Shown piece by piece: positions 3,258-62,688 of a stretch of DNA of 64,000 nt (positions within the stretch are counted from its first letter, which is position 1; every line of letters starts with the position of its first letter). The notes below the pieces were generated by a model. That model worked only from the letters and a program-made list of their open reading frames with translations. It made no database searches and was not told where the DNA came from. A program made the position numbers and the translations under genes. The stretch is from Prevotella sp. (GTDB taxonomy: Bacteria > Bacteroidota > Bacteroidia > Bacteroidales > Bacteroidaceae), in assembly GCA_030539375.1 (NCBI GenBank), contig JAUNSB010000001.1:49375-113374 (forward strand), given 5' to 3'.

Positions 3258-4157
3258 TTAATGTTTAAACAGCATCCTGAACTGCGACGGCACAGGAGTC
3301 TCAAACTCCATCGGCTCTCCTGTCACAGGATGATGGAAGCACAGCAGGAAAGCGTGCAGGCACAGACGGTGAAGCGGATCATCACCGTTACCATATTTCA
3401 CATCACCGCAAACGGGGTGCCCCATGTCGGCAGAGTGAACGCGAATCTGGTTCTTGCGTCCAGTCTCCAGCTTAAACTCCACAAGCGAGTGCTCCGTGGT
3501 GCGGTTATGAGTGAAATAATGGGTGACGGCATACTTGCCGCCATTGTCCACGGGCGATGAGTAGGTGACATACGCCTTGTTGTCCTTCAGCCAGTTGGCT
3601 ATTGTTCCCTCGTCGTTCTCCATCTCGCCGCTCAGCACGGCAATATAACGGCGGTCGTACACAATGTCGTGCCAGTTGCGCTCAAGAATCTGCTCCGTCT
3701 CCATATCCTTGGCATAAATCATCAGCCCACTGGTGTCGCGGTCCAGTCGGTGCACCACATGGGCACGGCATTTCTGACGGCTCTTGTGGAAGTAGTCGTC
3801 GAGCACACTCTTCACGTTCAGCGACGAATGTCCTGCCGCCATCGACAGTATGCCGATGTTTTTCTCCACCACTACCAGCCAGCGGTCTTCATACACAATC
3901 TTCACATAACGGCTCTTCAGCCCCTCATTGTTTTTCTTAGTCATGCTCACCGCCACCACCATGCCGGGACGCAGGGCAAAGTCAAACTGTGTCACACACT
4001 TGCCATCAACCTTGATGCCCCTACCCTGCAGCGTTGCCTTGATTTTCGAGCGGCTCTGTCCCGCCTCCTCAATAAGAAATTCGAGCAACTGCACATCCCT
4101 GTCGACAGTGATGTAACGATAATCGCCCTTGTTACCCCTATAACCTGTATTTCGCAT
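3258..4157 (-). CDS. RluA-family 23S rRNA pseudouridine synthase with N-terminal S4 domain
   Basis: 299 aa. Catalytic motif HRLDRDTSGLMIYAK, C-terminal KNQIRVH motif, and an S4-like N-terminus (RLLEFLIEE...KIKATLQGRGIKVDG). Confidence 0.85.
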   Translation of the reverse strand: MRNTGYRGNKGDYRYITVDRDVQLLEFLIEEAGQSRSKIKATLQGRGIKVDGKCVTQFDFALRPGMVVAVSMTKKNNEGLKSRYVKIVYEDRWLVVVEKNIGILSMAAGHSSLNVKSVLDDYFHKSRQKCRAHVVHRLDRDTSGLMIYAKDMETEQILERNWHDIVYDRRYIAVLSGEMENDEGTIANWLKDNKAYVTYSSPVDNGGKYAVTHYFTHNRTTEHSLVEFKLETGRKNQIRVHSADMGHPVCGDVKYGNGDDPLHRLCLHAFLLCFHHPVTGEPMEFETPVPSQFRMLFKH

Positions 4158-5296: not shown

Positions 5297-5304
5297 CAAA
5301 AGTA
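5297..5304 (-). promoter_or_regulatory. -7 promoter box (TACTTTTG) for the GH43-like gene
   Basis: The reverse complement of caaaagta matches TAnnTTTG, about 29 nt upstream of ATG 5268. Confidence 0.45.
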
Positions 5305-5349
5305 CAAAAAAAAATCGTAGCAGCCAAAAAGTTGGAGAATAAAGTTAAC

Positions 5350-5592
5350 CTACACTCTTATTTTCTTCACTACAACCTTACCGTTATGCTTTACCTCTAC
5401 CAGCACAATACCGTCGGCAGCGACAGTAAACTGCTCCACTGATGAAGATGCAACTCGACTGGTTACAGTCGCGCCAGATACAGAATATATTGTGATTACG
5501 TCATCTTGTGACAAGCCTTCTACTCTTACCATATTCCGCTTTGGACTAAAAATACGCAATACGTTATCGGTCTTGTCATTCAGCATGCGGTT
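5350..5592 (-). other. T9SS (Por) C-terminal sorting domain of the giant protein
   Basis: The last ~80 aa are RIFSPKRNMVRVEGLSQDDVITIYSVSGATVTSRVASSSVEQFTVAADGIVLVEVKHNGKVVVKKIRV. This is the typical type-A CTD pattern, ending in a K/R-rich beta strand. Confidence 0.6.
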
Positions 5593-8500
5593 GAAGCTTA
5601 CGGTGAAGCGTCCTTCCACATCACCAGCCTCTGCTATAGAGAAGTCATACTGACCTTCCAGAAGATCCACCGTCTTGCCAGTCTCGTTGTCTTTCAGCAC
5701 TACCGTCTCGTAGTCATCCACGTTGCAGTCTCCGGGGATGGCGAAGGTGTACATGCCAGCCTCGGGCAATGACACACCAACACTCACTTCTCCTTCTTTG
5801 TTCACTGCCGAGAGCAACGAGTAGCGGCCGCCACCCTGCCGGGCATAAATCTGCGGTCTGCCTGCCGACATCCACTTCACACCATCACCGTTTATGTCAA
5901 AGTCCGACCGTGACTCACCTACAGGCACAGCCTTCAGTTGCAGCCTGTCTTCCTGACCGTCTCCACCACTACGGGTATTGGCATGTGAAAGAGCCACTGC
6001 CATATCCTTACTTCCCAGATATGCCGTACCCGACTTCGTGTTGCCTGCCGTCGGAATCTCCACCTCAATGGTCTCTCTCTCCTTCAGAGTGGCAGTCTGT
6101 GTAAAGACAGCATCACCGGCAGGAATATAGCCTTCAGCATTATCGTCTATAGTATTGAGCGTGGTGTAAGCGCCGTTATGATAACCATACATCACCCTTC
6201 CATACTTCATATCACTGTAGTTCATGGCGCAGAGGTATGGCGAGCCGAAGAGGTTCCAGCTCATGTTCTCCTTATGTGTGAACCTGTTTCCACCTGACGA
6301 AGAAGAAGTCCATGGCTCATTGAAGTTATTCTTCAGCAACTCGATGCTCTTACCCGCATCCACATTCTCCACATAGCAGTTGCCAAAGAAGCGCACCTTG
6401 CTGCCTGCCATGCCTTCCAACAGCCAGCCTGTGGTAATCGGAGTCCTATAGGTGTTATAGTTTGTGCCCGTCCATGCGCCGTCTGTTCCACTATACTGAT
6501 AGCTATAGCCCGCACGTGTGGCGGCATCGTAGAGACTGAGCATAGCCGTGCCTTCCGTCCTTGTCACCTCAAACGGCATCACAGCCATGTCTGTACCCGA
6601 GGCACCTATGTTTCTCTCCACGGCAAAGTGTGTCAGACCTACAGCCTTGTTGTTGGCACGCAATCCTGCATGATGCTCCAGCAGCAGGAAACCGGGATTG
6701 AAAGGTGTGGCATCAGTATAATTCTTTGTAATCAGCAGCTCGGCACCGCCATCATACACACTGCCGTCATTGCCGGTCCCATCGGTATGGCGCACATACA
6801 CCACCGACTTGCCGTGAGGATAGTCATCTTCCGTAACCACATTGTCCGCTGTCATTTCCTTTGTAATGTTCCATGTCTCAAAGCAACCGTTGTCCACAGT
6901 GTTGCGGATACGTTTGTTGCCTGCGATGTCACGGCTATGACCTACCATCGTGATATAGTCAATAATGTCGGTTGTTCCTGCGTCAATATCTGCGGATGTC
7001 TCCATCAGCTGATATTCCCAGTCATCTGTGGTGACATATCTGTTGTCACCCGCAGCGCCCGTGCGGTTGTTGTCGTTACTCGTGGCAGTTTCTATTTCAC
7101 CCGTGGCAGTCACATTGACAGTCTTCACACCGCTCACACTTCCCTTCACCAAAGTATTATAGAGAATGCCGTCAGCTGCGCCGATAACATCTTTGGTTAC
7201 CACAGAAGTAGACAATATACCTTTATTAATAACAGGAGAAACATTCACCTCAAAGCCATCCACGACACTGTTATCACCTGATATGACCAGTCCGCCGTTC
7301 AGTTCCGAACGGCTGTCCCTTTCCAATAAGCCAACACGTTTGTCCAACAAATCCGTCACAATCTCGTCCGTTTCGGTATCGGTGGTAGCCTCATCATTCA
7401 TGCCTCCATACACCTTTACACCCTGATATTTCACCTGCAATGTCTCTGTGTCTTTCAGAGTATGATGCGCAAAGACGTATGCATTTGTTTTATCCTTATT
7501 AGCATTGACATACATTCCAGCCAAATCCACAGCATCCTGTAAATCATCAATGGCATTGTCCCAATCCTTGCCAGACTTATCACTGTTCAGCAATCCGGGT
7601 TTTACATATATAATAGGACGCAGATCTGACTCAAACTCATATGCGCCTATATCTATATTACCTACCACACGCACCACATTGTTGAGATCTTTCTCCGCAC
7701 TCATGTCCGCAACACCAGCCTTAGTCTTATATGTAGCCTCATTACCCATATTCAGCAAAGTGAAGTTAGGCCGGATACGATAATCTCTGTCTTCCAGCTT
7801 TGCATTATCCGGGTCACGGAAACGGGGACCGTCATTCAGGTCATCATTCACCGTACCCGCAATAAACACCTTATTATAATATATATTATCCTTTTCTGTA
7901 ACATTGTCAGCAATCATGTGCTGCGTTGTATTATTCCATGAGGTAGAATTATACACATTCAGCAGACTCTTGCTCATATCCGTACCATTCTGGGCAAATG
8001 TAGTATTTACCAGAGTGATATTATTTCCCTCTACACTTCCCACATTCAGACCATTTTTCTTATTGTCGGCAAATAGCGTATTGACCAACAGAACTTTTCC
8101 CGTATTCTTATCAAACAGTAAGCCGTCATCGTCACATGCCCTGATTGCCACATTCCTCAATGTCAATGGAGCAGAGTTTGAGGAGACATAGATACCGCAT
8201 CCCGTATTATTGATAAACGTGATACCAGAGAGGAATACATTCTTATCAGAAGATATATCCAACAGTTTTTGAGCCTTTATGTCCGGGTAATTATGTATCA
8301 CCGTAGGCGCACTGAAATCCTGTGTCTCCCGCACCTTGTTTTCTATTGTAGTACCTGTGCAAGAACCATATATCTCAAGGTTTGTCCATTCCAAACCATT
8401 TTTATCACCCGTATGCAAGGCGTATGTCGAGCCAAGAGCCACTAACGGATCCACATATTCTCCTGCCTTCACAAAAACACGTCTTGTTTTATTATTGTTT

Positions 8501-11500
8501 GAAGTTGGATTGGAAGCACCGATAATGGCACCACGCAAGTCGTCGGTGGCATTCATCCAGTTCTGACCATTTCCCAAACCTTTATTGAATACGTCAACAT
8601 AGATGGCGTCCATAGTAGAGAAGTCCTGCCTGTACTGATACTCATACAGACCGATATCTATAGGACGGCTATCCGCTGTCCCGTCCTCTTTAAGAGGACC
8701 GGAATAGCGAAGATAATCGGCATTCCCCATGTAGTCACTGATATATTCTTTGGCATACAGCTTAAACCAGTCTCTATAAGCCTGCGCATCACCAACGTAT
8801 GTTGCATCCTGCGTATAGTCACTTCCATCAGGCGCCACCTTACCGCTACCCGTATCTGTCAGTGGTGACTGTGCTATCGGGTTCCAGTTGCTTACCGGAT
8901 TATAGTTCGCCGCACCCACTTGCATGTTGGGATTAGCAAAGCGCGGTCCCGACAAATCCATATTGTCTGACACTAACTTAAAATTATGCCACGTATTGCC
9001 TGCGGCAAACAAGTCATTATAGTCGATGTCACTTGCAGAATAGGTTATATCCACAGCCCCGGGGATTGTGCTGTCTCTGCCACTGTCAGACTTATTGTTC
9101 CACAACAGGGTGTTGACCATCTTCACTTTTTTATTTGCATCAGAGCTGATGACAGGTCCCGTTGCGGTCTTGTTGCTCACAATGGTGTTGTTCATCAAGT
9201 CAACAGAGCCTCCAGCCACATGTATTGCACCACCTGTTCCCACCGAAGTGTTGTTTACAAAGATGGTATTCACGGCACGGAAAGTACCTATAGGCTCTGT
9301 AGCTGCCCCGATAACAGCCATATACACACCTCCACCTGCCGCATTTCCACTCTTGTCATCTACAGTGCTGCACCCGGCAAAAGCAGAGTTAATAGAAGTA
9401 AGGTTGCCGTTGCGCACATAGATACCGCCGCCACGCACAGCCTCATTGTCCATAAAGCGGCAGTTCACAATCTTATAATCCACACCATTGCTGTATAGTC
9501 CAGCTCCACAGCCTACCTCAGAGTTATCATCTCCACCTGTCTCACTATACAAAAAGTCTTTCGTCTTGCCATTCATCACGGTCAGACCGTCAAGTGTCAC
9601 GCTTTGCGTTTCAGGATCACCAGTACTTGTGCCCCTGTCACTATACAGTACATGGTAGGTGTTCTGCTCATTTCCCTCCATATCAATAGCTCCCGACAAG
9701 ATTGTTCCATGAGCCATTTCCCATGGCTCCAGAATATTATTGCCGTTATAGTCGGAATATTCACGCTTGTCAAGTATGTCCTTCTTTATTTCTTCCGCTT
9801 CATAACCGGTGATATCAACAAACGAAAGTGTCCCGTCAACTCCAGCAGGACTGTAACTTCCGCCATCCTCATGTGAGCAATACGTCTCATAACCAGAGAA
9901 CCCTCCATATATCTTCACGTTATATGGAACGCTAAACGAGTTCTGCCTTTGATCTGTCACACCACCAGATACAGTATGAGCATCAGCACGCCTTCTTCTT
10001 GGCTTATAGGTTCCACTGGCAACGAATATCTCAAACTCAGCCTCCTTAGCTCCCGGCACATTATTCTCACGCACGGTCCTGATATATTCCAGAGCATCGC
10101 CCAGCCAGGAGAATGGCGTATAGAATGATTGTCCGATATATGTACCGTCGCCCATAATCACATTCAAGCCTCTTGATACAAACAAACGCTTTACCAGCTT
10201 TTTGTCTTGAACCTTCGCATCTATCACAGCGTATGCGCCACAATCTACAGATATATTTTTATCGTCCGGATAATCTACTCTCTGTACTCCTCTCATGTCG
10301 TATGCAGCCACACCCAGCAAAGCCTCCAACTGCTGCTGGAAATAGGTGGTCATACCATGACTGATAAGCAGCGAATAGGGCTTCGGAGTATAGTCATCGT
10401 CATCATTGAAATAAGTTGTCTTGTCGTTTATCATAGACATATTGAAGAAGTTGCCTGGCAACTCCACAGCCTCCACATAACATTTATTGAAAGGATACCA
10501 TTCTTCAATCTCCGACGTTCCATCTGCTTTCTTATACACCTGTTCAAACAACTCAGCCTTTGTTGGATTGAGGTCTGCCGAGACATTCTTGTTACTGCCG
10601 GCATTGTTGCCGAATATCACAGAATTGGCAAACATGGCTGCTCCCTTCTCGCTATACACACCGCCAGCCAACTGCGCCTCGTTATCGGCAATAGTATTGG
10701 AGATGAGGTATGCAGGATAGCCTGTCGTCAGACCTTTTGCGGAGACATAAATGCCGCCTCCCTCCTTTTCTGCCGTATTATGGAGAATGGCACAGCCACT
10801 CACTGTTCCTCCTGGCAGCACATATAGTCCGCCACCATACATGGCAGTGTTATTCTGTACCACACAGTTTCTCACATGTGCCCATGCCGGCACAATGGCA
10901 CCACCGCCCTGCGTATTGGGATTACCCTCACCTGCCAAAGAGGTGGCGGCACCACCTTCCAGATACACACCGTCAATAATGGTCTTGACATCTGCGCCTG
11001 TCCAGTCTTGAGGTTTCTCCATAAAGGTAACAGCATGGTAACCGTTTATATCCTGTGTCGTCGTAGCCGTAGCTTTCTTAATTGGACTCAACACCGTAGG
11101 GAACTTCATAACGTCACGTATCACATTGCCGTTATCGTCTTTCTTTCTGTCTGCACTGTCATTCCAGTCCGCTGCCTGGTCATTAAATCCACCCATCAAG
11201 GTAACACCGTATGGCACAGAATAGCTATAACTCTGTGGATCTTTTTCGTCTGCCAACTTCGTGGCATGATAGGGAGTGCTTTCTGCATTGGTGTTCGCAT
11301 AGCCAGCCACCTTTACAATTACGGCATCCACCTTATCTACTTCACCTTTTGCAGACTTTCTTGCATATTCTCCAGCTGCATCCAATACTGTCTGTAGTTT
11401 TGTGGCACAGGCTGCATTGGCAAGGCTGCTTCCGCTCATGTCACCCGTCTCATTACCATTCTGTGTAACATAATACACCGCCATTTTTCTATTAGAATCG

Positions 11501-14500
11501 TCTGCTGCAATTACGATTTCAGGTGTAGTGCCCGCAATGTTCTCAAACTCGTATGCACCTATATCTACTCTACAGTCTTTAATACGGTCGGTGTAATCTG
11601 CATCGTATGATGGCAAAGTAACCTCATTACCATTTAAATCCTTGCCAAGTACATCTGTTCCCTTATTAATAGCAGGAGATGTTTTATGCAAAGAATAATC
11701 TCCTACTGACTGATCTTGAAATAGCTGCGCACCTGGATAGTCATCCATATAATAGATGTTTTTAATCCCAGCATATTTATTAATTCCGTCTTTATGTGCG
11801 TCACTGTTTTTCAGCAGACAATCTGTTATCTTTATTGCATCAGCTTGAGTTTCAAAATCCAATTCTTTTGTGTCTCCATATGTCGGATTATTCGTTGGTG
11901 TATTGCCATAAACAATCGTATTATAAATCTCCAATAATCCCGAATAACCGAACTGTGCAAAATAATTCCCGGAATAAACCGTGCTCGCACCGACATTTCC
12001 CGTAATAGTATTATTATAGAATTTTGCGACCTCAAAAAATATCGCAGTACCTCTTGGGTCATTACATTTTGCTGACAATTTATTTCCAGAGAACAACGTA
12101 TTGAATACAATTCCACTTCTTAGATATAAAGCACTGCCATAAACATATTGTCCTGATTCTCCTACTATATCGTTTTCTGAGAATATACTATTCTCTATTA
12201 TACCGTCATTTTGGAAACATCCGCCACCACGAGTACTCCAGCTTGCTGTATTCACATTATTCCTAATAATACAATTCTTAATATGCCCATTATAACGAAG
12301 TGCTAAACCTGCACCTCCATCACGTTGATGGCGAATCCTTACCCTTCCATTTTGAATAATAAGTCCATCCCAAGAAGTATCATAGACAAAACCATGAGCA
12401 ATATTATTTTTCAACTCCATGTGAGCTATGTCACTACCACCTACCTTACTATCATAAACATAATATGGGAATGGTTGAGTAAGCACCCTGCTACCTTCAT
12501 ATGCATCTTTATAACCATTAAGGTCATGAGTTATATCATAATACGTTGATTCTGCCCCATATTCACCATTTATACCAATCTCTTTAATATCAGCATAATC
12601 ACTATTTGACGGATTAGTAAATACAAGCTTCAAAAAACGTGCATTGACAGTTTTTCCTAAATTAATTGTTTTAGTTTTTGTATTGTTATTATCTGATGAT
12701 GCGTATGAATCAGAAGCAATTAATTTTGCATCTATATCATCCAGCGTTTCAGACAAATAAACTTTTACCGTAAATCCATATCGACGATGTTTAAGATTTA
12801 CCGTCTTAATATTCAAGATTTCCCCTAAGTCAATTGTGATATGGTGAGGATTTTTCGTTTGCGTACCATTACCTGAGTTATATATTGTATGCCACAATGT
12901 ATTTTCGTTACCATCTATAGCGTTAGCAGCCATACCATTTTCACCACCAGTTTCTTCCGAAGAAAAATCAACAACTTTCCATCCCTTTGATTTTTCTGAT
13001 ATATAGTCCCCGGTATCAGTTAGATATTGTCCCCAATTATTAAAATCGGAGCTATTTACTTCTTCTGTTGTATTTGTTTCAATTATAGTCTCATAAGTAC
13101 GTGGTTGGCGCTCATACGTTCCAGGATTTCCTGTAGAGGGGAAACCGCCGAACACATCTACACCATCTCTCATAAAGAAGCCTTCACGACGCAAATATTC
13201 TCCTTCTGCTACCCACACCTGCACCCTGTTTGCATCTACAATAGAAGACACTTGTAAGGTGGAAGATTTCCATCCTGAGCCTGGTGTTTCCGTCTTATAT
13301 ACACTTTTTCCTGTATATTCTATCGAATTATCCGCATTTCGTTTTAATGACCTATAATAAGCCTCATCAACAGCCCACTGCAAACCTGTCAAGAATTTAT
13401 TTTCCTTGTACAACTCAGCATCATACCCTTGGAATCCATGATTATTTCTATACGATGTACAATTTCCGTTTATCGCCTCACTCCATGACGAGCCGTCACC
13501 ACCAGGTTCTGTGGTGTTACCGTAATCACGTACATAGATTACCGTTCCTTTCTTCGGCAGTTCCGCCTCATAGGCTCCAAGGTCGGACACACCACCTAAG
13601 TCACGGTCATTAAGAGTGGTGATATCCTGTGTGTTTTCTGACGATGTGCCCGTTGCCTTGTTTATGATAACAGAAACATCATTGGAACTGGTCAACGGAC
13701 GGAAGACAGTATAACCGCCAAGATAAGTGTCGAAACCTAACTTGGCACCCACATCATTGGTGGGGTTGGCAAAGTTGAGTTGACCTTTTTGTCCTTCACC
13801 CATACCTCCAACTGTTGCCACATCTAAGGTGTTGCCTGAAGTATTGCCGGCGGCAAAGGAGCTGCTGCCTGAGACTTTTGCAACACCAACGTTATTGACA
13901 ATGGTGACATGCTCCATGGTCAGGTCGTCTGCCACAATGAGAGGATTGGTTTGTGTGGAACAAGTATTGTTGTTCACCACACAGTTACGCATAATGACCG
14001 TTGTTGTGGAGGGTGCATAGATGGCGGCACCCGTAACGGCAGTGTTGTCCTCAAAGGTGCAGTTAAGCAACGTTACCTTTGCATTGTCGTATGCCAGCAG
14101 CCCTGCGCCATGCGGCATGACAACATCTGGAGCGACATAGCCGTTGACAATGTGCACACCGTCCAGCTCTATGTCAGCACCTTCCTCTACAGTAACTACA
14201 TGATAGAAACCATTTTCCAGGGCTTCTCCGTCTGGATTACCGTTCAACACCGACCTATGCTCTATCGGGGCACGCCTAACATTATTGCCATCCCTATAAT
14301 AGCCGCCCACGAGGCGAAGCTTCGCACCACTCGCAGTCTTCTTAAATATAATGGTGGCACTACGGTCGTCTTCATCTGTATAGGCATAACGGGGCCACAG
14401 GTCACCCTCCATAACCCTTACCTCCAGCGTCCTGCCGCCAACTTCAGCCTTAGGAAGATCGGCAAGATAATTGATGGCATTATTGATGGAGCGATAGGGA

Positions 14501-17289: not shown

Positions 17290-17303
17290 ATTATTTTTTA
17301 TCC

Positions 17304-18362
17304 TTAATTATTCAGTGTTATAGTAGTTGCTCCCGTCACCCCACGGATAGTGGTGTTCACCTTATACCATGTGGATTTTTGTATTTTGTCAGGAAACTGG
17401 AAGGTGTAAGAATCCTGTCTCACGGCACCGTCCTTTGTGGCAGAAAGATTAAATTTCACATGAGGGGTTCCTTTACTTGGGAATACATAGTGATACACAC
17501 GCCCGTTGCGCTTGCTGACAGCTGATGTGTTCACGAATAGGGACTGTCCTGCAAAAGTCTCAGTCCCTGTATATAATTCAGGGAAAAGACACCCCTTGCC
17601 TTTGCCTGCTGCTGCCTCTTCAGATGTATTATAAAAGGTGAAGTTCTCAACCTTCACATCTGTATATCCTTGTGTGTAGGCATCCTGCGCGTCCCACTGT
17701 ATGTCTATCTTCGTGGCTAAGCGGGTGAGGCGCATGGAGGGAATGGGCTTCAGTTCTCCATTGTCTGCATCCTTGCTTATCTCATATTCCGCCAGATTGC
17801 CACTTTGGTCGTCCTGATAATATCCCGTGGCAACACTCAGGAACTTCTCTGTCTGGCTTGCATCTCCCGAGGCATAGTCGTTGGAGATGAGCAAAGCTTT
17901 AACTGCCTCATCCGTGGTACACCCTTGAATGGCAGCCTTAGGACTGTTGACAGCATCGCTGCTATAAGTCACGCCGTAGATATGCACCTTACCTTTCTGT
18001 ACATACAACCTGAGCTGTCTGTAAGTGGTGCCCGTATATACAGGCAAACGCTCAAAGTCATCCTTGGTCAGGATTTTCACAACAACGGGAAGATTGCCGG
18101 TGTCAGTCTCATCCTCCAACTCCGTATAAGCTATGATGACAGCCAGCTCGTCCCAGTACTCGCCTTCACTTACTGCCTCGCCCGGGTCCCCCACTGCCCT
18201 TGTGCCACTGCCTTGCGGAGCTGCAATGAGAAGCGTAATTGTCTCTGCCGGCTCTTCATTTATAGAGCCGGCATCATCGTGGCTGCATGAAAGAAGTGAC
18301 ATCAAGCACACCACCATTATTATATATATGTGTTGTTTGCTCTTTAACATTTTCTTCTTCAT
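17304..18362 (-). CDS. fimbrillin-like accessory lipoprotein (type V pilus minor/tip subunit candidate)
   Basis: Lipoprotein signal MKKKMLKSKQHIYIIMVVCLMSLLSC. Pilin-like motif SMRLTRLATKIDIQW. Its stop lies 15 nt upstream of the giant gene start. The start was trimmed from 18398. Confidence 0.5.
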   Translation of the reverse strand: MKKKMLKSKQHIYIIMVVCLMSLLSCSHDDAGSINEEPAETITLLIAAPQGSGTRAVGDPGEAVSEGEYWDELAVIIAYTELEDETDTGNLPVVVKILTKDDFERLPVYTGTTYRQLRLYVQKGKVHIYGVTYSSDAVNSPKAAIQGCTTDEAVKALLISNDYASGDASQTEKFLSVATGYYQDDQSGNLAEYEISKDADNGELKPIPSMRLTRLATKIDIQWDAQDAYTQGYTDVKVENFTFYNTSEEAAAGKGKGCLFPELYTGTETFAGQSLFVNTSAVSKRNGRVYHYVFPSKGTPHVKFNLSATKDGAVRQDSYTFQFPDKIQKSTWYKVNTTIRGVTGATTITLNN

Positions 18363-18471
18363 AGACTTCGTCGATTCTTCACTCTTCACTGACTTCATCG
18401 ATTCTCGGCTGCACCTCGGGATAGCTCAAGCAAGCTTGGCTCTCCACTCGGCTTGCACGAGAATTCTTCAT

Positions 18472-19458
18472 TTATATCTCTATCTCATAGTCACCGCCGG
18501 GTTTCCAGTCGAGTGTTACGCTTACACCCACCTCAGGTGCCTCGGTAGTAACACTCCCGTCAGGATTGAGATTTACCTTTATTATCTTTAGTTGGGCAGC
18601 CTTCAAAGGCTCTCTGACATACAGTTTTGTCTCCGTTATCTTTCCGTTGACGGTCACATACACATGATAGCTCCAGATACCATCAGCCTCACCCGCTCTT
18701 AAACGCATACTGTCAAGAGAAGGAAATCCCGCTGTATGCAGACAGGTGTGCCCCCCCTCATCCATACGGGTGGTGCGCACAGCTGTTGTACGTTCATGGT
18801 GATACACACTGTCGTTTACGGAGAAGTCATTGGCAAGTCCAACCACATACGCCTTAATGTCATCCACGACTACGCCATTGCGGTTGATGACCAATGCCGT
18901 AGCACTGTTCTGCATATACAGGGGAACGGTGAAGGTGTAGTTCTCTGACTTTACGGGCATGTCCTTGCGGGCAGTGAACAGTCCGTGACTGTGCCCGTCG
19001 ATGGTGTCATTTGGCACATTGGCTATATTTACCTGCTGGTCTGTATCCTGTCCGGAGAGGGTGAGAACCGGGTTGGCAGCCACATTTGCCCATGCCAAAT
19101 GACGATAGTCAGCTGCCTTAAGATAGATGGTGAACGAGGCATTTGCGGCATTTATCTGATGTGCCTCATGATGTGCCTGTCCATTATTAGCATAGAAATT
19201 GATGTCCAGATCGCGAGCAACATCAGAGAAAATGTCTGCCAAGGCTTGTTCCAACCTCCGTGCCATCGCCTGCTCCTCGGGTACCGACAGCTCTGAGTCT
19301 ATCTCCGTCTGCATATTGGTATACAGCCGCACCTGATACTTGACGGTATAGTCTGTGCCACAGTCCGACATATCCTCATCAATGCAGGAGCTCAATGCCA
19401 ATGGAAATACCATTGCCACCGCTATCCGCCACATATTATAATGTAATGTCCTCATCAT
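18472..19458 (-). CDS. FimB/Mfa2-family fimbrial anchor subunit
   Basis: 328 aa. Lipobox LALSSC followed by IDEDMSDCGTDYTVKYQVRLY, a typical Mfa2/FimB N-terminus. It lies directly downstream of the Mfa1-like gene. Confidence 0.6.
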   Translation of the reverse strand: MMRTLHYNMWRIAVAMVFPLALSSCIDEDMSDCGTDYTVKYQVRLYTNMQTEIDSELSVPEEQAMARRLEQALADIFSDVARDLDINFYANNGQAHHEAHQINAANASFTIYLKAADYRHLAWANVAANPVLTLSGQDTDQQVNIANVPNDTIDGHSHGLFTARKDMPVKSENYTFTVPLYMQNSATALVINRNGVVVDDIKAYVVGLANDFSVNDSVYHHERTTAVRTTRMDEGGHTCLHTAGFPSLDSMRLRAGEADGIWSYHVYVTVNGKITETKLYVREPLKAAQLKIIKVNLNPDGSVTTEAPEVGVSVTLDWKPGGDYEIEI

Positions 19459-19669
19459 CGTTCAGTTTTTTCTCCCTCAGCCCTTCGGAAGATTAACGGT
19501 TATCCTCGGGCTCTAATTGAGGGCTTTGTTGACGACAGCCCTACGAAAGACTGCCGCCATGTTTTTGTCGTCTTAGAAAGTATGTTAAGATACTTTGCCG
19601 TTTATCCTAAGATACTTTGCCAAGTAAGTTAACATGCTCGGAAAATCCGGCTTCCTGAGAATACTTTGT

Positions 19670-21478
19670 TTACTCAATTTCTACATCAAAGGTAATACCC
19701 TTCTTCCACTCCAAATCTACAGAAAGACCGAATTCCAAGTTAGTGGCACGGAGGTCAGGAATCACGTTATAGGCATTCTCCAAAGAAGTGATAGTAACCT
19801 TTGCTGTGGTCTTATAGTCAGACTTAAAGACATCAGTAACAGCATTAGGATTATATTCAGTATTATTCTTATATGAGGTAGGGTCAAGCTTACCCAAAAG
19901 ATAGAACTTACTTCCCTTATAGACAATCTGATTATTATGTCCAACAAACTCTACATCAGAGTTATTCTCAAGCTCAATGGCAAACTGAACAATATTTGGA
20001 CTTTCTTTGGTATTTGGCAGTGCCAAAGTATAGTTGCAAATTTCAGCATCACCGTTCACATAATTTGCATAATACTTTGGGGTTTCATCAATATTTAACT
20101 CTACCTTATCATAAATTGTTTTTCCGAAAGTAGCAGTGGCAGAAGGCGCAAACTTATAATCCACCTTATCAGGCTGACCGCCGACAAGAATTGCCGTAAT
20201 AGGGAAGGTTTTGGCACCTACTGTTATCGTACGCTGTACATCGTCGACTTTCTTGTCTGACAAAGTCGTCGCACCAGTCTTAACTGCCAATGCAAGATTA
20301 CCCACACCATAATTGATATTGTCCTTCATTGCTATAGAACGGGTAGTGGCAAGCACCGCATCTTTCCATTCGGTGGCTGTAAAACCGTTTGACCAGTCTG
20401 TTGTTGTTGTTGGCCAATTAGCCACAGAGTTATCAGAAGCCTTAAGTGGTGTGTTCGCATAATAATACAACGATGCAGGATAGGTTACATTTGCGACATT
20501 TATGTTATTATCTGCACCAGGAGTGCCTATGATTTGACCTGTGGTAACATAAAGAAATTTACCACTGGCATCTTTATCATAATTAACAGCCACCGCACCA
20601 TCAGGCAAATTCAGATTTTTAGGGAAACTCAGAGTTGTTGACAATGTATAACCACTTGTGGCATCACCTAAAACAGTAAATATACTGCCATTTGTAATTG
20701 CTGCCATAATCTTAGCTGCAACATCATCGTCTGTAGTTTTCAACTTAGACGCAGCATTATACAGACTCTCTAAAGCTGCCTTTATGCTGGAGGCAGAACC
20801 AGCCTTCATCTTCACAAAGTCATCATACAATTTTTTTAATTGCGAATCGTCAGCAGAAGCATCCCACCCCTCAACACTTTCAACACCATTCAAGACACTC
20901 AGCAAAGCTACAGCCTGTTCATTGTCAGAAGGCACAGTACTAGCTGGAAGGACATCCTTCAAAGCGAAAGTGATATCACTCACACTTGTAGCACCATCAA
21001 ACGTTGTTGTCAAATTGCCATTGGCAAAGTCAGTTGCAGCCTCTATTGCTGCCTGACCATAGAACAGGAAATGATTGGTGCCTACAGGTATTGTGACATC
21101 GCTGTAAATCTTGCTGGAACGATTCTTGTCATCTGTGCCATAAATATCACTTGTCGTAAGAGGGGCCAGTGTGATTACAGATGCGATATCCTCTGTGCCC
21201 GCCATATCAATACCAGCCAAGGTGAAAGGATACAGACGTATATTCTTCATTCCCAAGAAGCCTGTCCCGTCTGCCTGAGTATTGTCACCCGTCATACGGG
21301 TTTTTACCTGTGCAGCACGCGGTATGTTGATTGCAAACTGCGTCTTCACACTCTCCCCATCGAATGACGGATTCACGTTAACCACTTCCTCATCAGATGA
21401 ACAAGCTGAGAAAGCCATTGCGCCAGCAAGCAGCACCGCCACTCCATAGGCAAAATTCATGTTAGTAAACTTTTTCAT
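19670..21478 (-). CDS. Mfa1-like major fimbrial (type V pilus stalk) subunit
   Basis: 602 aa. Lipobox AFSACSSD. The N-terminal propeptide-like segment TQFAINIPRAAQVKTR ends in Arg, a candidate Arg-protease maturation site. The size and position fit an Mfa1-type stalk pilin. Confidence 0.6.
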   Translation of the reverse strand: MKKFTNMNFAYGVAVLLAGAMAFSACSSDEEVVNVNPSFDGESVKTQFAINIPRAAQVKTRMTGDNTQADGTGFLGMKNIRLYPFTLAGIDMAGTEDIASVITLAPLTTSDIYGTDDKNRSSKIYSDVTIPVGTNHFLFYGQAAIEAATDFANGNLTTTFDGATSVSDITFALKDVLPASTVPSDNEQAVALLSVLNGVESVEGWDASADDSQLKKLYDDFVKMKAGSASSIKAALESLYNAASKLKTTDDDVAAKIMAAITNGSIFTVLGDATSGYTLSTTLSFPKNLNLPDGAVAVNYDKDASGKFLYVTTGQIIGTPGADNNINVANVTYPASLYYYANTPLKASDNSVANWPTTTTDWSNGFTATEWKDAVLATTRSIAMKDNINYGVGNLALAVKTGATTLSDKKVDDVQRTITVGAKTFPITAILVGGQPDKVDYKFAPSATATFGKTIYDKVELNIDETPKYYANYVNGDAEICNYTLALPNTKESPNIVQFAIELENNSDVEFVGHNNQIVYKGSKFYLLGKLDPTSYKNNTEYNPNAVTDVFKSDYKTTAKVTITSLENAYNVIPDLRATNLEFGLSVDLEWKKGITFDVEIE

Positions 21479-21490
21479 GTCAAAACAATT

Positions 21491-22834
21491 TTATTGATTA
21501 ATATTTCTTTTCCTTATCTGTTCAATGTTACGGCGTGCGTTCTCATTACCCTCATCTGCAGCACGCTGCATATACTCCATACCTTTCTGCTCATTGCCTG
21601 TCATATAATAAGCCACTCCGAGCGGACTATGCGAACGCTTGTCACATGACACAGGTTCGAGCAATGTGAGCGCCTCAGCATATTTTCCTTCCTTCATCAA
21701 GTCTACAGCCTTGTTGATGATCTTGGCTGTGGTGTCGGGCACATAGTCATAGTATATGCGCACATAGCCGGAGTTACGCTGGTCTTTCAGTATATACTCC
21801 TTCAGATATGCGTATGCCTTGCCCTTGTCGAGTGCCTTTATCATACGCTCCTTCCTGTCGGGAGAGTTTCTGGAGTCAATAATATCGAGCAGTCTCTCAC
21901 GCCATTCAAAATCTGTATCACTGATTTGGTCGCGCAGCTCTGTCCACGCCTCACCGCCGTTTACCGCCTCATACATGCTGTCGGGAGTGCGTACCTTCTG
22001 TTGCATATACTTCTTCAATGCCTCGGCGCGGTTGGCAGACAATGCGGAGTTACGCTGCTGCGGACCTTCCACTGACGCCAGTCCTATAATCTGTATTATC
22101 TTTACCGACGATGTGGTGTCTGCCATTATCGCCTTGGTGATGTATTCTATCCGGTCGAGCGTCTGGGCATTGTCACGGAAATCGTGCAGCAACGTTGACT
22201 TTGCCACAGGAAAATGAACGTAGAGCGCGCCTTCCTCCTTGCGGAGGATGCGTGTGTCGTCATAAGGCAGGTACTTGCTTATGTGCTGCAGCACGGGATT
22301 ATTCTTCTGTAGCTCGCCAGCCTTGCCTGTGTTGTCCTCCACATACTCCAGCTGCGGCATGAACGGCGGGATATAGACGAAATGTCCGATACTGTCATGA
22401 GGCATGTCCACCACATTGCAGCATCCCTCCATCTCTTTCTTAGCAGCCATCTCTATGCGTCCAGTCCACAGCCATGGATAGCGGTCACGGCTGAGCGTCA
22501 GCTCACGCTGTTGTGTGGCGTTTAGCGGAAGCCCGGAAGCCGTGGTCTGCGGCACACTGTCGTAGAACCGGCTGCGCTCCATATATCTCATGTTTCTCTT
22601 TCCACGGAACACTATCGGGTCGAGAAACAGCGAGTCACCCTTTGCGTTGCAGAGGAAAGGCGTGAGACACAGGGCATAGTCGCTGCCCACAGTCTGGTCT
22701 CCGGCAAGCACGTATGTGATTTTCATTGTCGAGTCATCAGCCATGAAGCCGGTAAGCCGGCTTTCAATGGCTGCCTGGGCAAAGGCGGTGAATGCCGCCG
22801 CAAATATAATTGCCATAATCAGTAATCTTTTCAT
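21491..22834 (-). CDS. DUF3868-like protein with OmpA-like and TPR-like C-terminal parts
   Basis: 447 aa with a signal peptide. The middle region IIQIIGLASVEGPQQRNSALSANRAEALKKYM resembles an OmpA C-like peptidoglycan-binding motif. The C-terminus is TPR-like (GKYAEALTLLEP...YYMTGNEQKGMEYMQRAADEGNENA). The gene sits between the DUF3575-like and pilin genes, as it does in many Bacteroidales loci. Confidence 0.5.
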   Translation of the reverse strand: MKRLLIMAIIFAAAFTAFAQAAIESRLTGFMADDSTMKITYVLAGDQTVGSDYALCLTPFLCNAKGDSLFLDPIVFRGKRNMRYMERSRFYDSVPQTTASGLPLNATQQRELTLSRDRYPWLWTGRIEMAAKKEMEGCCNVVDMPHDSIGHFVYIPPFMPQLEYVEDNTGKAGELQKNNPVLQHISKYLPYDDTRILRKEEGALYVHFPVAKSTLLHDFRDNAQTLDRIEYITKAIMADTTSSVKIIQIIGLASVEGPQQRNSALSANRAEALKKYMQQKVRTPDSMYEAVNGGEAWTELRDQISDTDFEWRERLLDIIDSRNSPDRKERMIKALDKGKAYAYLKEYILKDQRNSGYVRIYYDYVPDTTAKIINKAVDLMKEGKYAEALTLLEPVSCDKRSHSPLGVAYYMTGNEQKGMEYMQRAADEGNENARRNIEQIRKRNINQ

Positions 22835-22844
22835 CCTTACACCT

Positions 22845-23444
22845 TTATTTTATATTATATATAAACGATATTGCAAGCTTGGTGGGCATGAACATGCCTT
22901 TCGTCTCGTCGGCAAGTTTGCTGCCGCATTTAAAGCACCTGTATTTAGAGTATCTCGTTATGCCATAGCCGATGCCTATCTCCGCCTCTATGCTCCATCT
23001 CTTTGACGGAAGCATCCAGCTGTAGCCGTAAGCTATGCCTACTGCGCCGAGATCGCCCTGAAAACGGTTGTCCTTAAGCTCGGGAAACAGTCCGAAAGGA
23101 ACGTCTATTCCTCCAACATTGAAATGCGAGTAAACAAGATGTGCGCCGAAAAAATGTCCGGCAAAGGCATGACAGAGCCAGTAGCGCGCCTCGGGCTGCA
23201 CGGCAATGTGGCGGAGCTTCTTGTTCTCTGAGAATGTAAAGGGATTATATCCGAGTGAGAGGTCCACAGTCCATCTGTCGGCAACCTTCTTCTCAACAGC
23301 TGCGTTAACCGATGTCGTAGCCCAATAAAGGGTGTTGGTCTTCACAGCCACATTCTGTGCCACTACCGGTGTCATATACAACATCAGCAAAATAGTCATA
23401 GTCGCAGCCATGCAAAAACCTAAAAAACTATTACAACGTCTCAT
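22845..23444 (-). CDS. DUF3575-like small outer-membrane beta-barrel protein
   Basis: NVAVKTNTLYWATTSVNAAVEKKVADRWTVDLSLGYNPFTF...RHIAVQPEARYW shows an alternating beta-strand pattern and a C-terminal aromatic-rich end. The start was moved to MRRCNSF (alternative Met at 23453) because a -7 box at 23468-23475 lies downstream of the 23480 ATG. Confidence 0.55.
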   Translation of the reverse strand: MRRCNSFLGFCMAATMTILLMLYMTPVVAQNVAVKTNTLYWATTSVNAAVEKKVADRWTVDLSLGYNPFTFSENKKLRHIAVQPEARYWLCHAFAGHFFGAHLVYSHFNVGGIDVPFGLFPELKDNRFQGDLGAVGIAYGYSWMLPSKRWSIEAEIGIGYGITRYSKYRCFKCGSKLADETKGMFMPTKLAISFIYNIK

Positions 23445-23467
23445 ATATAACATATTTAAAATTTCTA

Positions 23468-23475
23468 CAAAATTA
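23468..23475 (-). promoter_or_regulatory. -7 promoter box (TAATTTTG) of the pilus operon
   Basis: The reverse complement of caaaatta matches TAnnTTTG, 15-24 nt upstream of the candidate start codons of the first operon gene. Confidence 0.5.
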
Positions 23476-24120
23476 GTCATTATATTCCATTCCTACAAAC
23501 TTACACACTGGACAACCATGCAAAATTGGTCTTTGTCCATTAATCTGTCCATTTCAGAATGACCGAATATGGCCTTTCTTCCATAAAATCCAACCGTTGC
23601 ATCCCCCAACAGGCAGAAACGGTAACATTGTCTTATTGTCTTTCACCTGCCATTGTCCACCGTTTTTCATACGTCAACAGTTACCCCGTCATAACATTTC
23701 GAATGCAAAAATACAAAAAAAATTCTGCATTGAGCAATCCCCCCCCACATTAACCATAATTAACCCGATAAAATCATATATTTTTACAATTAAGTTATTT
23801 CCATTCCCGTAATACGTCTTTTTCTGCCATTATACATTTTATATTCATTCTACGATTTACAATGCAAAATTACGTATAACAAAACAGAAAAACAAATACG
23901 TTTTTCCATTTTGAACCATTTGAGACTACATTTTTACTATTTGAGACAAAAAAAAATGAAAATTACCAATAAAATAATATTTCTGTGGCGATACCCCCAA
24001 AGAACATATGTTCGATGATTGAAGAACAAATGAGGCGTTTCCAAGATATAAAACACATCACAAATCGTACCAAGTTATATTTTTACGTCACATATATAAT
24101 AAATTCTCAGAAAAAAACTG

Positions 24121-24128: not shown

Positions 24129-24162
24129 CAACCAAATAGTAAAACATAACAAAAACGAGACA

Positions 24163-24435
24163 ATGAACAAGGCTATTATTACTGTGGTGGGCAAGGACAC
24201 CGTGGGCATTATCGCAAAAGTTTGCACTTATCTGGCAGAGAACAAAATAAACATTCTCGACATCTCGCAGACTATCGTGCAGGGGTATTTCAACATGATG
24301 ATGATTGTTGACATGAGCAAGGTTGACAGCACTTTCGAGACCGTCAGCGGCAGTCTGATGAAGATTGGCGAGGGCATGGGCGTGGAGATAAAATGCCAGC
24401 GCACTGAGATTTTCGACAAGATGCACCGCATCTGA
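24163..24435 (+). CDS. ACT-domain protein (UPF0237 type)
   Basis: 90 aa, [37 protein letters not shown]... A stand-alone ACT fold of the kind that always pairs with a UPF0210 gene. Confidence 0.8.
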
Positions 24436-24464
24436 GCATACACCTTATTATATATATAGGAGAT

Positions 24465-25829
24465 ATGATAAATATTGCTGAGGTCAGAGAGACCAACATG
24501 ATGATAGAGCAGGAGAACCTCGACGTGCGCACAATCACGATGGGCATCAACCTGCTGGGCTGCGCTGACAGCAGTCTGGAAAAGACGTGCAACAACATTT
24601 TTGACAAGATAACATCGCTGGCGGGAAACCTTGTGAAGACAGGCGAGGACATTTCGCGCGAGTTTGGCATTCCCATTGTCAACAAGCGAGTGAGCATCAC
24701 CCCCATCTCGTTGGTGGGAAGTGCCTGCTGCAAGACTCCCGACGACTATGTGGAGATAGCACGCACGCTCGACCGTGCCGCCAAAGCCATTGGCATAAAC
24801 TTTCTGGGCGGCTACAGCGCCGTGGTGTCGAAGGGAATGACGCAGAGCGACGAGCTGCTTATACGCTCCATACCCAAGGCACTGGCGCAGACCGACTTTA
24901 TATGCTCGTCGGTGAACGTGGGCAGCACAAAGACCGGCATAAATATGGATGCCGTGAGGCTGATGGGCGAGATTGTGCGCGAGACAGCCATAGAGACAAA
25001 GGAGCGCGACTCGATAGGCTGCGCCAAGCTGGTGGTGCTGTGCAACGCGCCCGACGACAATCCGTTTATGGCTGGTGCTTTCCATGGAGTGACTGAGGCT
25101 GATGCCATAATCAACGTTGGCGTGAGCGGTCCCGGAGTGGTGAAACACGTGTTGCAGAACATCCACGGCGAGAGTTTCGAGGTGCTTTGCGAAACCATCA
25201 AGAAGACTGCGTTTAAGATTACACGCGTGGGGCAGCTGGTGGCTCAGGAAGCTTCGGCAAGGCTCGGAGTGCCGTTTGGCATCATCGACCTGTCGCTGGC
25301 ACCTACGCCAGCCATTGGCGACTCGGTGGCAGACATTCTGTGTGAAATAGGATTGGAGCACGCCGGAGCACCGGGAACAACTGCTGCTCTGGCTTTGCTC
25401 AACGACCAGGTGAAAAAAGGCGGTGTGATGGCATCGTCGTACGTGGGCGGACTGAGCGGAGCGTTCATTCCTGTGAGCGAGGACCAGGGTATGATAAATG
25501 CCGTGGAGGCAGGAGCGCTGACAATAGAGAAGCTTGAGGCAATGACCTGCGTATGCTCGGTGGGGCTCGACATGATTGCCATCCCTGGCGACACACCATG
25601 CACCACAATAGCTGGCATCATTGCCGACGAGAGCGCAATAGGAATGATAAACCAGAAGACCACGGCTGTGCGCATCATACCGGTGATAGGCAAGGGCGTG
25701 GGCGACAGGGTGGAGTTTGGAGGTTTGCTGGGCTATGCGCCGATAATGCCGGTAAACAAGTTCAGCTGCGCCGATTTCGTTAACCGCAAGGGAAGAATCC
25801 CCGCACCTATACATTCGTTTAAGAATTAG
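24465..25829 (+). CDS. UPF0210 (DUF711, PFL-like) family protein
   Basis: 454 aa. The N-terminus [25 protein letters not shown] and conserved blocks FLGGYSA and [11 protein letters not shown] are typical of UPF0210. Confidence 0.8.
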
Positions 25830-28241: not shown

Positions 28242-28281
28242 TTTATTGTGTCTAAAATGTTGAAAAAATCCGTTTCTTTTG

Positions 28282-28289
28282 CAAAGTTA
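28282..28289 (-). promoter_or_regulatory. -7 promoter box (TAACTTTG) for the TrmH-family gene
   Basis: The reverse complement of caaagtta, about 40 nt upstream of ATG 28241. Divergent with the 28302 box. Confidence 0.5.
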
Positions 28290-28301
28290 CAGATTTTTTC
28301 T

Positions 28302-28309
28302 TAACTTTG
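28302..28309 (+). promoter_or_regulatory. -7 promoter box (TAACTTTG) for the BamA/TamA-like gene
   Basis: Exact TAnnTTTG match 23 nt upstream of ATG 28332. Confidence 0.5.
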
Positions 28310-30993: not shown

Positions 30994-31060
30994 CAATTTA
31001 AAATTATTGAAATTTTCCACAAAGATAATGATTTTATTTTGTATTTCTCGTTTTTTTTGC

Positions 31061-31068
31061 TAATTTTG
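31061..31068 (+). promoter_or_regulatory. -7 promoter box (TAATTTTG) for the MBL-fold hydrolase gene
   Basis: Exact TAnnTTTG match. It lies inside the ORF-track N-terminal extension, which supports the start at 31087. Confidence 0.5.
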
Positions 31069-33214: not shown

Positions 33215-33310
33215 TAACATTTCTGCATTGTGCAGATTGCAAAATGATAGATAGTAGCCCTAATTTTATGAATTGTTGCTAAAATATTTGGCAGTTTAAG
33301 ATAAAAAGTG

Positions 33311-33318
33311 TAAATTTG
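33311..33318 (+). promoter_or_regulatory. -7 promoter box (TAAATTTG) for serC-serA
   Basis: Exact TAnnTTTG match about 80 nt upstream of ATG 33398. Confidence 0.5.
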
Positions 33319-38129: not shown

Positions 38130-38412
38130 TACAAAACTAAAACTTGTATTTATAAATAATATCACTAATAAAATTTTTTTATTGTTGTCCGGAAGAATTT
38201 TCTGTCTATATTTTTAGACAAAATATGCTTACTGTTGTGTGACACATTTTGCAATTGTAATTATGTGTCTGGACTTTGGGCATGTAAGCATGGCAAATGT
38301 CTCTTTTTAATCTTTCTGCCGCAGAGGTCGGCATATCCGTCTATTTCTGAATTATGACATGGCGGACTCTGAAAAATATGTAGTATTGTTTGGCGGTTAC
38401 GGATAAAAGTGT

Positions 38413-38420
38413 TAACTTTG
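38413..38420 (+). promoter_or_regulatory. -7 promoter box (TAACTTTG) for the PUL regulator
   Basis: Exact TAnnTTTG match inside the ORF-track N-terminal extension, which supports the start at 38471 (MMRVAGQ). Confidence 0.45.
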
Positions 38421-58988: not shown

Positions 58989-59020
58989 TGCAAACAATTT
59001 TGTTTGCAAAATGTTTGCAC
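58989..59020. promoter_or_regulatory. operator-like palindrome TGCAAACAA-tt-TTGTTTGCA plus a third half-site
   Basis: 9-bp inverted repeat with a 2-nt spacer at 58989-59008, and an extra TGTTTGCA at 59013-20. It overlaps the -33 region of the 59038 promoter box. Confidence 0.35.
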
Positions 59021-59037
59021 AATTAAAATAGAAGTAT

Positions 59038-59045
59038 TATTTTTG
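59038..59045 (+). promoter_or_regulatory. -7 promoter box (TATTTTTG)
   Basis: Exact TAnnTTTG match about 100 nt upstream of a GNRA-loop terminator and 125 nt upstream of the NYN fragment ATG. Confidence 0.35.
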
Positions 59046-60032: not shown

Positions 60033-60044
60033 GGATGTTATGTT

Positions 60045-60108
60045 TTTTGACGGGTAAATGGTGAAAATAGTTTTGTTGACGGGTGAGATTTATTTTGACG
60101 GCGGGTGA
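60045..60108. repeat. three direct repeats TTGACGG(N0-7)GGTGA upstream of the HU-like gene
   Basis: TTTTGACGGGTAAATGGTGA (60045-64), TTGTTGACGGGTGA (60073-86) and TTTTGACGGCGGGTGA (60093-108). Confidence 0.5.
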
Positions 60109-60155
60109 AAGCCCGTTTGGCAGCTGGCAAAAGACTGTCGGGCAGCAGGCGCAAC

Positions 60156-61901: not shown

Positions 61902-61934
61902 TTTTTAATTTAGTAACTGTTGATGTTTGTCTTT

Positions 61935-62641: not shown

Positions 62642-62680
62642 AACAATTGCAGCAGAACCCCATTGTTGGAATTCCGCTGC

Positions 62681-62688
62681 AAAGATAC
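62681..62688 (-). promoter_or_regulatory. -7 promoter box (TATCTTTG) upstream of the primase-like gene
   Basis: The reverse complement of caaagata matches TAnnTTTG, 40 nt upstream of ATG 62641. Confidence 0.35.

Follow-up and report, generated by a model that had tools for sequence, protein, structure and literature searches.

Within the 64-kb window analyzed here, that is, the whole 64,000-nucleotide stretch of a Prevotella sp. contig (JAUNSB010000001.1), six consecutive, tightly spaced open reading frames (ORFs) occupy the minus strand from 5350 to 23480. In the order A to F they comprise 211, 447, 602, 328, 364, and 3,979 codons, and our ORF check found them at the coordinates and in the order given by a preliminary description of this DNA. 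We propose that they form a type V (Mfa-like) pilus operon, conserved in Prevotellaceae, in which the terminal gene, F, specifies a giant surface protein that takes another export route than the pilins, a reading that we regard as plausible but finely balanced. It is very likely that the pilins and the giant gene form a functional unit, because their synteny is conserved in 34/34 genomes and in distant relatives. As anticipated, the predicted proteins display two export signatures, namely lipoprotein signals on C, D, and E, and a Sec signal together with a type IX secretion system (T9SS) C-terminal domain (CTD) of type A on F. A, B, and F have ordinary Sec-type signal peptides, those of B and F having no Cys.

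A conserved gene order from pilin genes to a giant gene

We surveyed synteny by scanning an alignment of E homologues against one genome per GTDB species, which yielded 34 loci from Prevotella, Segatella copri, Xylanibacter rarus, Paraprevotella, Mediterranea, and related metagenome-assembled genomes. By tblastn, C, D, E, and the giant gene occur in the same order in every one of these loci, as far as the contig extends, with identities of 33–90%. The preliminary description had suggested such a survey, of giant CTD genes downstream of mfa2-like genes in other Bacteroidales. Gene A is present wherever the contig reaches far enough upstream, while B is missing from most S. copri-clade loci and is fused to A in one. 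The set of pilin genes varies. L044 (giant of 4,631 aa) encodes DUF3575, B-like, C-like, Mfa2, and E-like proteins before the giant, and L042 (5,642 aa, with a leucine-rich repeat (LRR) domain) a DUF3575-OmpA fusion followed by C-like, Mfa2, and E-like proteins. L043 (4,750 aa) has three C paralogues, an Mfa2-like gene, and an E-like gene, and L045 (5,125 aa) has three Mfa_like_1 genes and an E-like gene. In all loci, L042–L045 included, the gene immediately upstream of the giant one encodes an E-type pilin with an R-x-x-GDPG motif, which makes the E-F pair the operon's invariant core. The two genes are separated by 13–15 nt in the window, in L008, L028, and L030, and in most S. copri-clade loci; in the window the gap measures 14 nt (17290–17303), not the 15 nt first given.

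The F orthologues at these loci are mostly longer than 3,000 codons, running to the end of the fetched DNA, and all those inspected have, as judged by eye, a hydrophobic N-terminus resembling a signal peptide. An exhaustive profile search with the C-terminal unit of F recovered 302 cluster representatives (50% identity) at E<1e-30, most of them 3,600–5,100 aa long with the conserved unit at the very C-terminus, and none bearing a functional name in the sources examined. The same search refuted the idea that the relatives of F are a family of small proteins, which had been suggested by fragments of <1,300 aa without signal peptides. Among 96 full-length F homologues, the N-termini of the top 45, judged by eye, are all hydrophobic and signal-peptide-like. 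The homologues are collinear over nearly the whole length of F, except at aa ∼1396–1634, where a discoidin domain resides.

Some members of the family are interrupted or truncated. In L005, L006, and L007, which come from three independent assemblies, a TAG at ∼9974–9976 stands where the conserved DIGLYE-Y-QY motif of the syntenic giant orthologue has its Tyr codon and splits the gene into parts of 2,751 and 1,067 aa (intact allele, P0017). Premature stops in the giant gene also occur in L012, L016, and L026. In addition, L002–L004 (L002:10001–12646) hold an 881-aa copy of the F C-terminal unit alone, without a signal peptide, which was seen on 15 contigs. This copy, flanked by MatE and CNNM genes and away from any pilus genes, probably remains from a deletion.

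Genes C, D, and E resemble type V pilin genes

On their sequence features, C, D, and E appear to be lipoproteins of the type V pilin kind. Their lipoboxes (..AFSAC26 in C, ..LSSC34 in D, and ..LLSC38 in E) are conserved in orthologues from the 34 genomes, that of D in all of its orthologues. Gene D (18472–19458, minus strand; lipoprotein with Cys34) scores 33.8 bits with the Mfa2/FimB-type anchor family PF08842 (cut-off 21.2), in keeping with its earlier description as an Mfa2-like anchor.

Gene C (19670–21478, minus strand) encodes a 602-aa lipoprotein (Cys26) and is the candidate stalk (Mfa1-like) pilin. C has no Pfam match, and neither its sequence nor a profile returned a match from PDB. 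We built an AF2 model from 36 homologues (pLDDT 77, pTM 0.79). The nine best Foldseek matches of this model in PDB are all Bacteroidales type V pilins, including 4gpv (E 3.5e-5, probability 1.0) and Mfa1 (5nf3, E 3e-3, and also 5nf2). A helical insert at aa ∼187–265 keeps the TM-scores modest (0.28/0.46). In the model, an N-terminal strand (aa 43–51) is followed by a low-confidence or disordered loop (aa 55–72) containing Arg61, which is invariant across the C family, and a C-terminal strand follows a flexible linker. Four of the 36 homologues match the NCBIfam Mfa1 family NF038041. We thus consider C a candidate for the two-domain β-sandwich pilin fold of a major type V subunit; the proposed Mfa1-like identity is favored by the predicted fold and by these homologues, although C itself has no sequence-family match.

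Gene E (17304–18398, minus strand) encodes a pilin-like lipoprotein that, as the partner of the giant gene, is a candidate for a tip or adaptor pilin. E has no Pfam match, and neither its sequence nor a profile found one in PDB. It shows similarity to the NCBIfam models FimD_tip (E 4.2e-9, 35.7 bits, cut-off 170) and Mfa1_fam (E 9e-8, 31.8 bits, cut-off 130), and the N-termini of the E and C families align with a probability of 92% in a profile-profile comparison (hhalign). Arg51 and Asp55-Pro56-Gly57 are invariant in the E family. In both C and E the lipobox is followed by an N-terminal strand and then a conserved Arg, the layout to be expected of pilins primed by a protease and a hallmark of strand exchange primed in this way. 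For E, gene callers and the signal peptide favor a start at Met13 or Met17 (near 18350–18362), suggesting that translation does not begin at 18398.

The giant protein ends in a T9SS sorting domain

Gene F (5350–17289, minus strand) encodes a protein of 3,979 aa that comprises a Sec signal peptide, approximately eight divergent β-helix modules, a C-terminal β-sandwich region, and a T9SS type A CTD. The CTD (aa ∼3890–3979; 5353–5622, minus strand) ends in ...GKVVVKKIRV and contains a KxxxK motif, a cited CTD signature (PMC9477747). When 40 diverse full-length giants were compared, the tails of 23 matched TIGR04183 (E<=0.01, best 2.6e-11) and others matched families of T9SS-dependent proteins. 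Among 16 non-redundant C-termini of close F homologues, five match TIGR04183 (best 6.4e-6) and two match PF18962, and a profile of close-homologue tails weakly recovers the PDB CTDs of RemA, NucA, RgpB, and another gingipain. A profile built on the final ∼800 residues of the F family matches residues 959–1112 of the 1,114-residue RemZ (E 3.1e-7), which we take to be a Flavobacterium T9SS substrate captured in the translocon. The model of the F C-terminus matches the mirolase CTD (8qb1; Foldseek probability 1.00, TM 0.61), and PorZ was also matched. Sequence and model together indicate that F carries a T9SS type A sorting domain, and F is likely to be T9SS cargo. The Por-type tail noted in the preliminary description is therefore clear at the family level, through TIGR04183, RemZ, and the mirolase fold, but marginal in the window copy, which scores below threshold, as it also does against DUF6383 (19.8 versus 23.7 bits). 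T9SS is functional in Paraprevotella (PMC9477747), a genus in which the operon occurs (L010).

The conserved C-terminal unit of F (aa 3220–3979; 5353–7632, minus strand) comprises the last β-helix module, an Ig/FN3-like β-sandwich, and the CTD; its homologues are 43–55% identical, and the AF2 model of this region has a pLDDT of 72.7. The N-terminal signal peptide, MLRHLRNILIVFLLLSTHLAAKA, lacks a lipobox. Between these ends, the passenger contains choice-of-anchor-Q motifs and a Beta_helix match (29.5 bits versus a cut-off of 25.9 when scanned in 500-aa pieces). Seven D-x-G-A/L-Y/F-type motifs (e.g., DIGAYE) mark the ends of modules and one further module is present, making the proposed count of about eight β-helix modules reasonable. 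Self-BLAST of F at E 1e-3 revealed no internal repeats; the modules are too divergent for this comparison, and their boundaries therefore rest on motifs. Short GGxI/GGAx-type motifs occur in 10 copies, while PMP repeats remain below threshold (PF02415, 14–18.3 bits versus 20.6; TIGR01376, 10–14 versus 15), so that the earlier label "Pmp-repeat" is a loose term.

The discoidin domain reported in the preliminary description is recognized (F5_F8_type_C, PF00754, E 1.3e-12) at aa 1443–1570 of F (12580–12963, minus strand). It sits in the non-collinear segment at aa ∼1396–1634, and by tblastn and blastp most orthologues lack it. A low-GC tract (11450–13100, F aa ∼1396–1946; 0.30–0.39 versus ∼0.47 in the rest of F) extends over module 4's discoidin domain and the remainder of that module. 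The absence of the discoidin segment from most orthologues points to an insertion or recombination event within the giant gene that is specific to a lineage.

Genes A and B and the transcription signals

Gene A (22845–23480, minus strand) has a Sec signal peptide and, as described earlier, is a DUF3575 protein, matching PF12099 over profile positions 3–177 of 177 (E 1.2e-70, 236.8 bits, cut-off 21.1); the product is presumed to be an outer-membrane β-barrel. Gene B (21491–22834, minus strand) encodes a 447-aa secreted protein with a weak OmpA-like segment at aa 235–285 and a TPR-like C-terminus. It had been termed DUF3868-like and OmpA-like. The former label is not borne out, as no Pfam match to DUF3868 was found at E<=0.01; for the latter, there is a match to OmpA (PF00691, E 2.5e-5) that covers only profile positions 19–72 of 98 and falls below the cut-off (25.0 versus 27.2 bits). 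A TPR_2 match is weak. DUF3575 (A) and the OmpA-like part of B are fused in one ORF in S. copri 1A8_2 (L033:5465–7003) and in a distant relative (L042:3884–5500), the latter showing DUF3575 and a faint OmpA match. These fusions suggest that A and B act jointly as a split OmpA-type barrel plus peptidoglycan-binding protein.

The gaps A-B, B-C, C-D, D-E, and E-F measure 10, 12, 211, 73, and 14 nt. A sigma-70 and terminator scan is uninformative for Bacteroidetes, and we replaced it with the Bacteroidetes promoter consensus TTTG-N19–21-TAnnTTTG, which occurs 10 times in the window versus 0.64 expected (∼15-fold enriched), each time just upstream of a gene. The candidate promoter P1 (23468–23499, minus strand) is a TTTG-N20-TAATTTTG match to the −33/−7 consensus and ends 24 nt upstream of the likely start of gene A; the TAATTTTG box previously noted at 23468–75 is thus real and part of a full match. 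P1, a candidate by its sequence pattern, is kept in the upstream region of L008 (82% identical). It lies inside the longest ORF of gene A, yet upstream of the likely true start; the sequence indicates that this ORF (22845–23480) is over-extended and that translation probably begins at ATG 23444 (199 aa), because in L008 the corresponding ATG upstream is not in frame. A second candidate, P2 (TTTG-N20-TAATTTTG; 23865–23896, minus strand), lies ∼420 nt upstream of gene A within a ∼600-nt non-coding stretch that is 82% identical in L008, both promoter motifs included. A perfect 12-nt inverted repeat farther upstream (23932–23943 and 24133–24144, flanking 189 nt) was considered as an invertible promoter and rejected: it lacks a conserved counterpart in L008, chance alone would give ∼0.3 repeats of this kind, and there is no recombinase gene in the neighborhood.

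Scanning 5350–23444 with the consensus pattern found no match inside the operon, consistent with the single operon of the preliminary description. The C-D spacer (19459–19669, minus strand; 211 nt), the longest gap in the operon, contains an imperfect hairpin without a U-tract and holds neither a full consensus promoter nor a minus-strand terminator-like site, although the terminator scan is, as mentioned, uninformative here. Right after the F stop codon, the consensus promoter of the downstream gene, GH43-like by Pfam (start 5268), occupies 5297–5328 (minus strand) and marks the end of the operon. A single transcription unit for all six genes, as predicted from sequence patterns, fits this promoter map, in which further composite-pattern sites lie, for example, at 2013–2048, 28278–28309, 31038–31068, 33287–33318, 38389–38420, and 59014–59045.

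Is the giant protein attached to the pilus?

In the mechanism that we propose, one promoter upstream of A would drive all six genes. The pilins would reach the surface by the lipoprotein route and polymerize on the anchor D, while F would cross the outer membrane via T9SS and lose its CTD. The conserved C-terminal unit of F would then dock on the pilus through a dedicated adaptor pilin, E, a step proposed because E invariably adjoins the giant gene. The approximately eight β-helix modules and the discoidin lectin domain would project outward as an adhesin, by the same logic as proposed for P. gingivalis Mfa5, and A and B, as a split OmpA-type protein with a barrel and a peptidoglycan-binding part, would support the base of the structure. 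That F is physically attached to the pilus is a possibility to which we grant slightly less than even weight.

Several observations weigh against this mechanism. The most important caveat concerns the secretion system: TXSscan reportedly detects T9SS in only some S. copri clades (PMC11514259), whereas the operon is present in all 11 S. copri-labelled genomes recovered, and none of the T9SS core genes (porK/L/M/N, sprA/sov, porU, porV) is among the ∼36 genes of the window. The tail of F in the window falls below curated cut-offs (TIGR04183, 20.5–20.8 versus 23; PF18962, 15.3 versus 27). The pilin assignment of E draws on weak hidden Markov model matches and the N-terminal profile match. In roughly half of the loci the E-F gap measures 100–1,500 nt, leaving room for an independent promoter. 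Whole-protein and piecewise Pfam/NCBIfam scans of F found no vWA domain, the proposed holder of Mfa5 on its pilus. By Foldseek, the C-terminal 760 aa of F resemble β-sandwich arrays (Ig/FN3-like), with no pilin-like domain or donor strand among them. Finally, type A CTD cargo is normally anchored to anionic lipopolysaccharide (A-LPS), not to pili.

In a different arrangement, F would be co-regulated with the pilus but separate from it: its CTD cleaved off by PorU, as in ordinary type A cargo, and the protein bound covalently to A-LPS, F would form a long adhesive fiber or coat of its own, and the C/D/E pilus would be a second adhesin produced alongside. This is the main rival and, in our judgment, an unlikely but serious one. 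The type A signature on F agrees with it, as do the A-LPS anchoring model of type A cargo in P. gingivalis and Paraprevotella (PMC9477747), the lack of a pilin-like domain in the F C-terminal unit, and E-F spacing that reaches 1.5 kb in some species. It leaves unexplained, however, why an E-type pilin always adjoins the giant gene even when the pilin set differs, and why the pairing survives at 30–35% identity; moreover, Mfa5 is a case of a CTD protein becoming part of a pilus.

Alternatively, there may be no long pilus at all, and D, E, and possibly C would join the A/B pair in a short outer-membrane platform tethering F, much as SprB and other large T9SS adhesins are held by outer-membrane partners of their own; the Ig-like C-terminal tail might then serve docking besides, or in place of, T9SS targeting. 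The resemblance of A/B to a split OmpA-type anchor, fused in L033 and L042, the invariance of the E-F pair, the presence of the operon in S. copri clades reported without T9SS, and the persistence of the 881-aa C-terminal remnant alone in one lineage would all fit such a platform. We nevertheless find it improbable, as C has the size, the fold matches (Mfa1 among them), and the Arg-loop of a polymerizing stalk pilin, L043 carries three C paralogues, D is a bona fide Mfa2-family anchor, and the CTD matches type A sorting domains in 23/40 homologues. That the giant gene came to lie beside the pilus genes by chance or recently, with no functional meaning, is effectively refuted by the gene order kept in 34/34 species-level genomes and in distant relatives. 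The 14-nt E-F gap without a consensus promoter also speaks against it; the only hint of recent recombination, the low-GC discoidin segment, lies within F and not at its borders.

Comparison with known surface systems

The proposed pilus operon most closely recalls mfa1-mfa2-mfa3-mfa4-mfa5 of P. gingivalis, which likewise encodes a stalk, an Mfa2-type anchor, accessory pilin(s), and, in the last position, a protein that is not a pilin and bears both a Sec signal and a T9SS CTD. In both, the pilins are lipoproteins with Arg processing sites and the protein encoded last is conserved in its C-terminal half (PMC8512630, PMC7835359, PMC13655056). Mfa5 depends on T9SS, its CTD, and porU, and its C-terminal half is conserved (PMC8512630, PMC7835359), which supports the analogy drawn in the preliminary description for the last operon position. 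Unlike Mfa5, F lacks a vWA/MIDAS domain, is >3 times larger, and is built of β-helix modules and a discoidin domain; a profile of its C-terminal unit, covering aa 3220–3979 only, found no match to the solved part of Mfa5 (PDB 6tnj/6to1). The operons also differ in that a single accessory pilin, E, stands in place of Mfa3 and Mfa4, in that DUF3575 and OmpA-like genes open the operon here but not the mfa operon as described in those papers, and in the divergence of C, with its helical insert and no Pfam match.

Type V pilus operons of Bacteroides and Phocaeicola share the lipobox and conserved Arg of the pilins. A DUF3575 gene has been associated with Mfa-like fimbrilin genes (PMC10434189), with DUF3575/DUF3868 neighbors such as BT4233–BT4234, and the adhesive component is encoded at the operon end (bioRxiv 2024.11.15.621889), a likeness to the position of F. 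Their terminal adhesin is a lipoprotein tip pilin, however, whereas the last gene here encodes a non-lipoprotein, CTD-bearing protein of 4,000 aa, and no DUF3868 was detected. With the Flavobacterium adhesins RemA and RemZ (PDB 8gl6/8gl8), F shares a Sec signal, a long repetitive extracellular passenger, and a C-terminal β-sandwich sorting domain of ∼80–100 aa, but the passenger domains are unrelated. To our knowledge, large T9SS adhesins of the RemA/RemZ type are not encoded in pilus operons. The GGxI/GGAx short motifs and predicted parallel β-helix of F recall chlamydial Pmp/β-helix adhesins, from which F differs in its sub-threshold PMP repeats, the absence of an autotransporter barrel, and export by CTD/T9SS rather than by type V secretion. 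Our literature search found no description of this operon, of the giant F family, or of a DUF3575 function. The concept of a T9SS-exported pilus accessory protein is already known from Mfa5.

Other genes in the window

Diverging from the upstream region of the operon, a small ORF, presumably ACT-domain-like as recognized by eye, and a DUF711 gene (E 1.6e-193) occupy 24162–25829 on the plus strand; an overlapping 528-aa minus-strand ORF (24228–25814) is spurious. A HipA-family kinase gene lies at 35481–36728 (minus strand). The plus-strand region 38471–58692 is a polysaccharide utilization locus with a hybrid two-component/AraC regulator, a SusC/SusD pair, a Big_2 protein, and alginate-lyase-like, GH28, heparinase II/III-like, GH97, GH88, and SDR genes. 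At the 3′ end of the window, HU-HIG, DUF3987/PriCT_2 primase-like, and coiled-coil genes (59436–63881, minus strand) suggest a mobile element.

Implications for Prevotellaceae surface biology

To the question, posed by Mfa5, of how type V pili take up proteins that are not pilins, the window adds a second T9SS-tailed protein, unrelated and much larger, in the same operon slot. Dozens of species share the operon, and these are dominant in many human and animal guts. The family of ∼4,000-aa proteins, which numbers >300 cluster representatives (50% identity) and bears no functional name in the sources examined, merits annotation even should F be anchored separately. We tentatively suggest, as a possibility that we rate below an even chance, that the operon represents an unrecognized class of type V pilus in Prevotellaceae, including the Segatella copri complex that is abundant in the human gut, in which a distal β-helix fiber of ∼4,000 aa delivered by T9SS is captured by an R-x-x-GDPG adaptor pilin. 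If so, the two-pathway assembly exemplified by Mfa5 would be a general modular principle with swappable passengers (β-helix, LRR, discoidin, or vWA). If F is pilus-borne, it would be a major uncharacterized adhesin of Prevotella and Segatella, E and the C-terminal unit of F would constitute a conserved and testable adaptor-cargo pair, and T9SS status would be linked to pilus function in these commensals.

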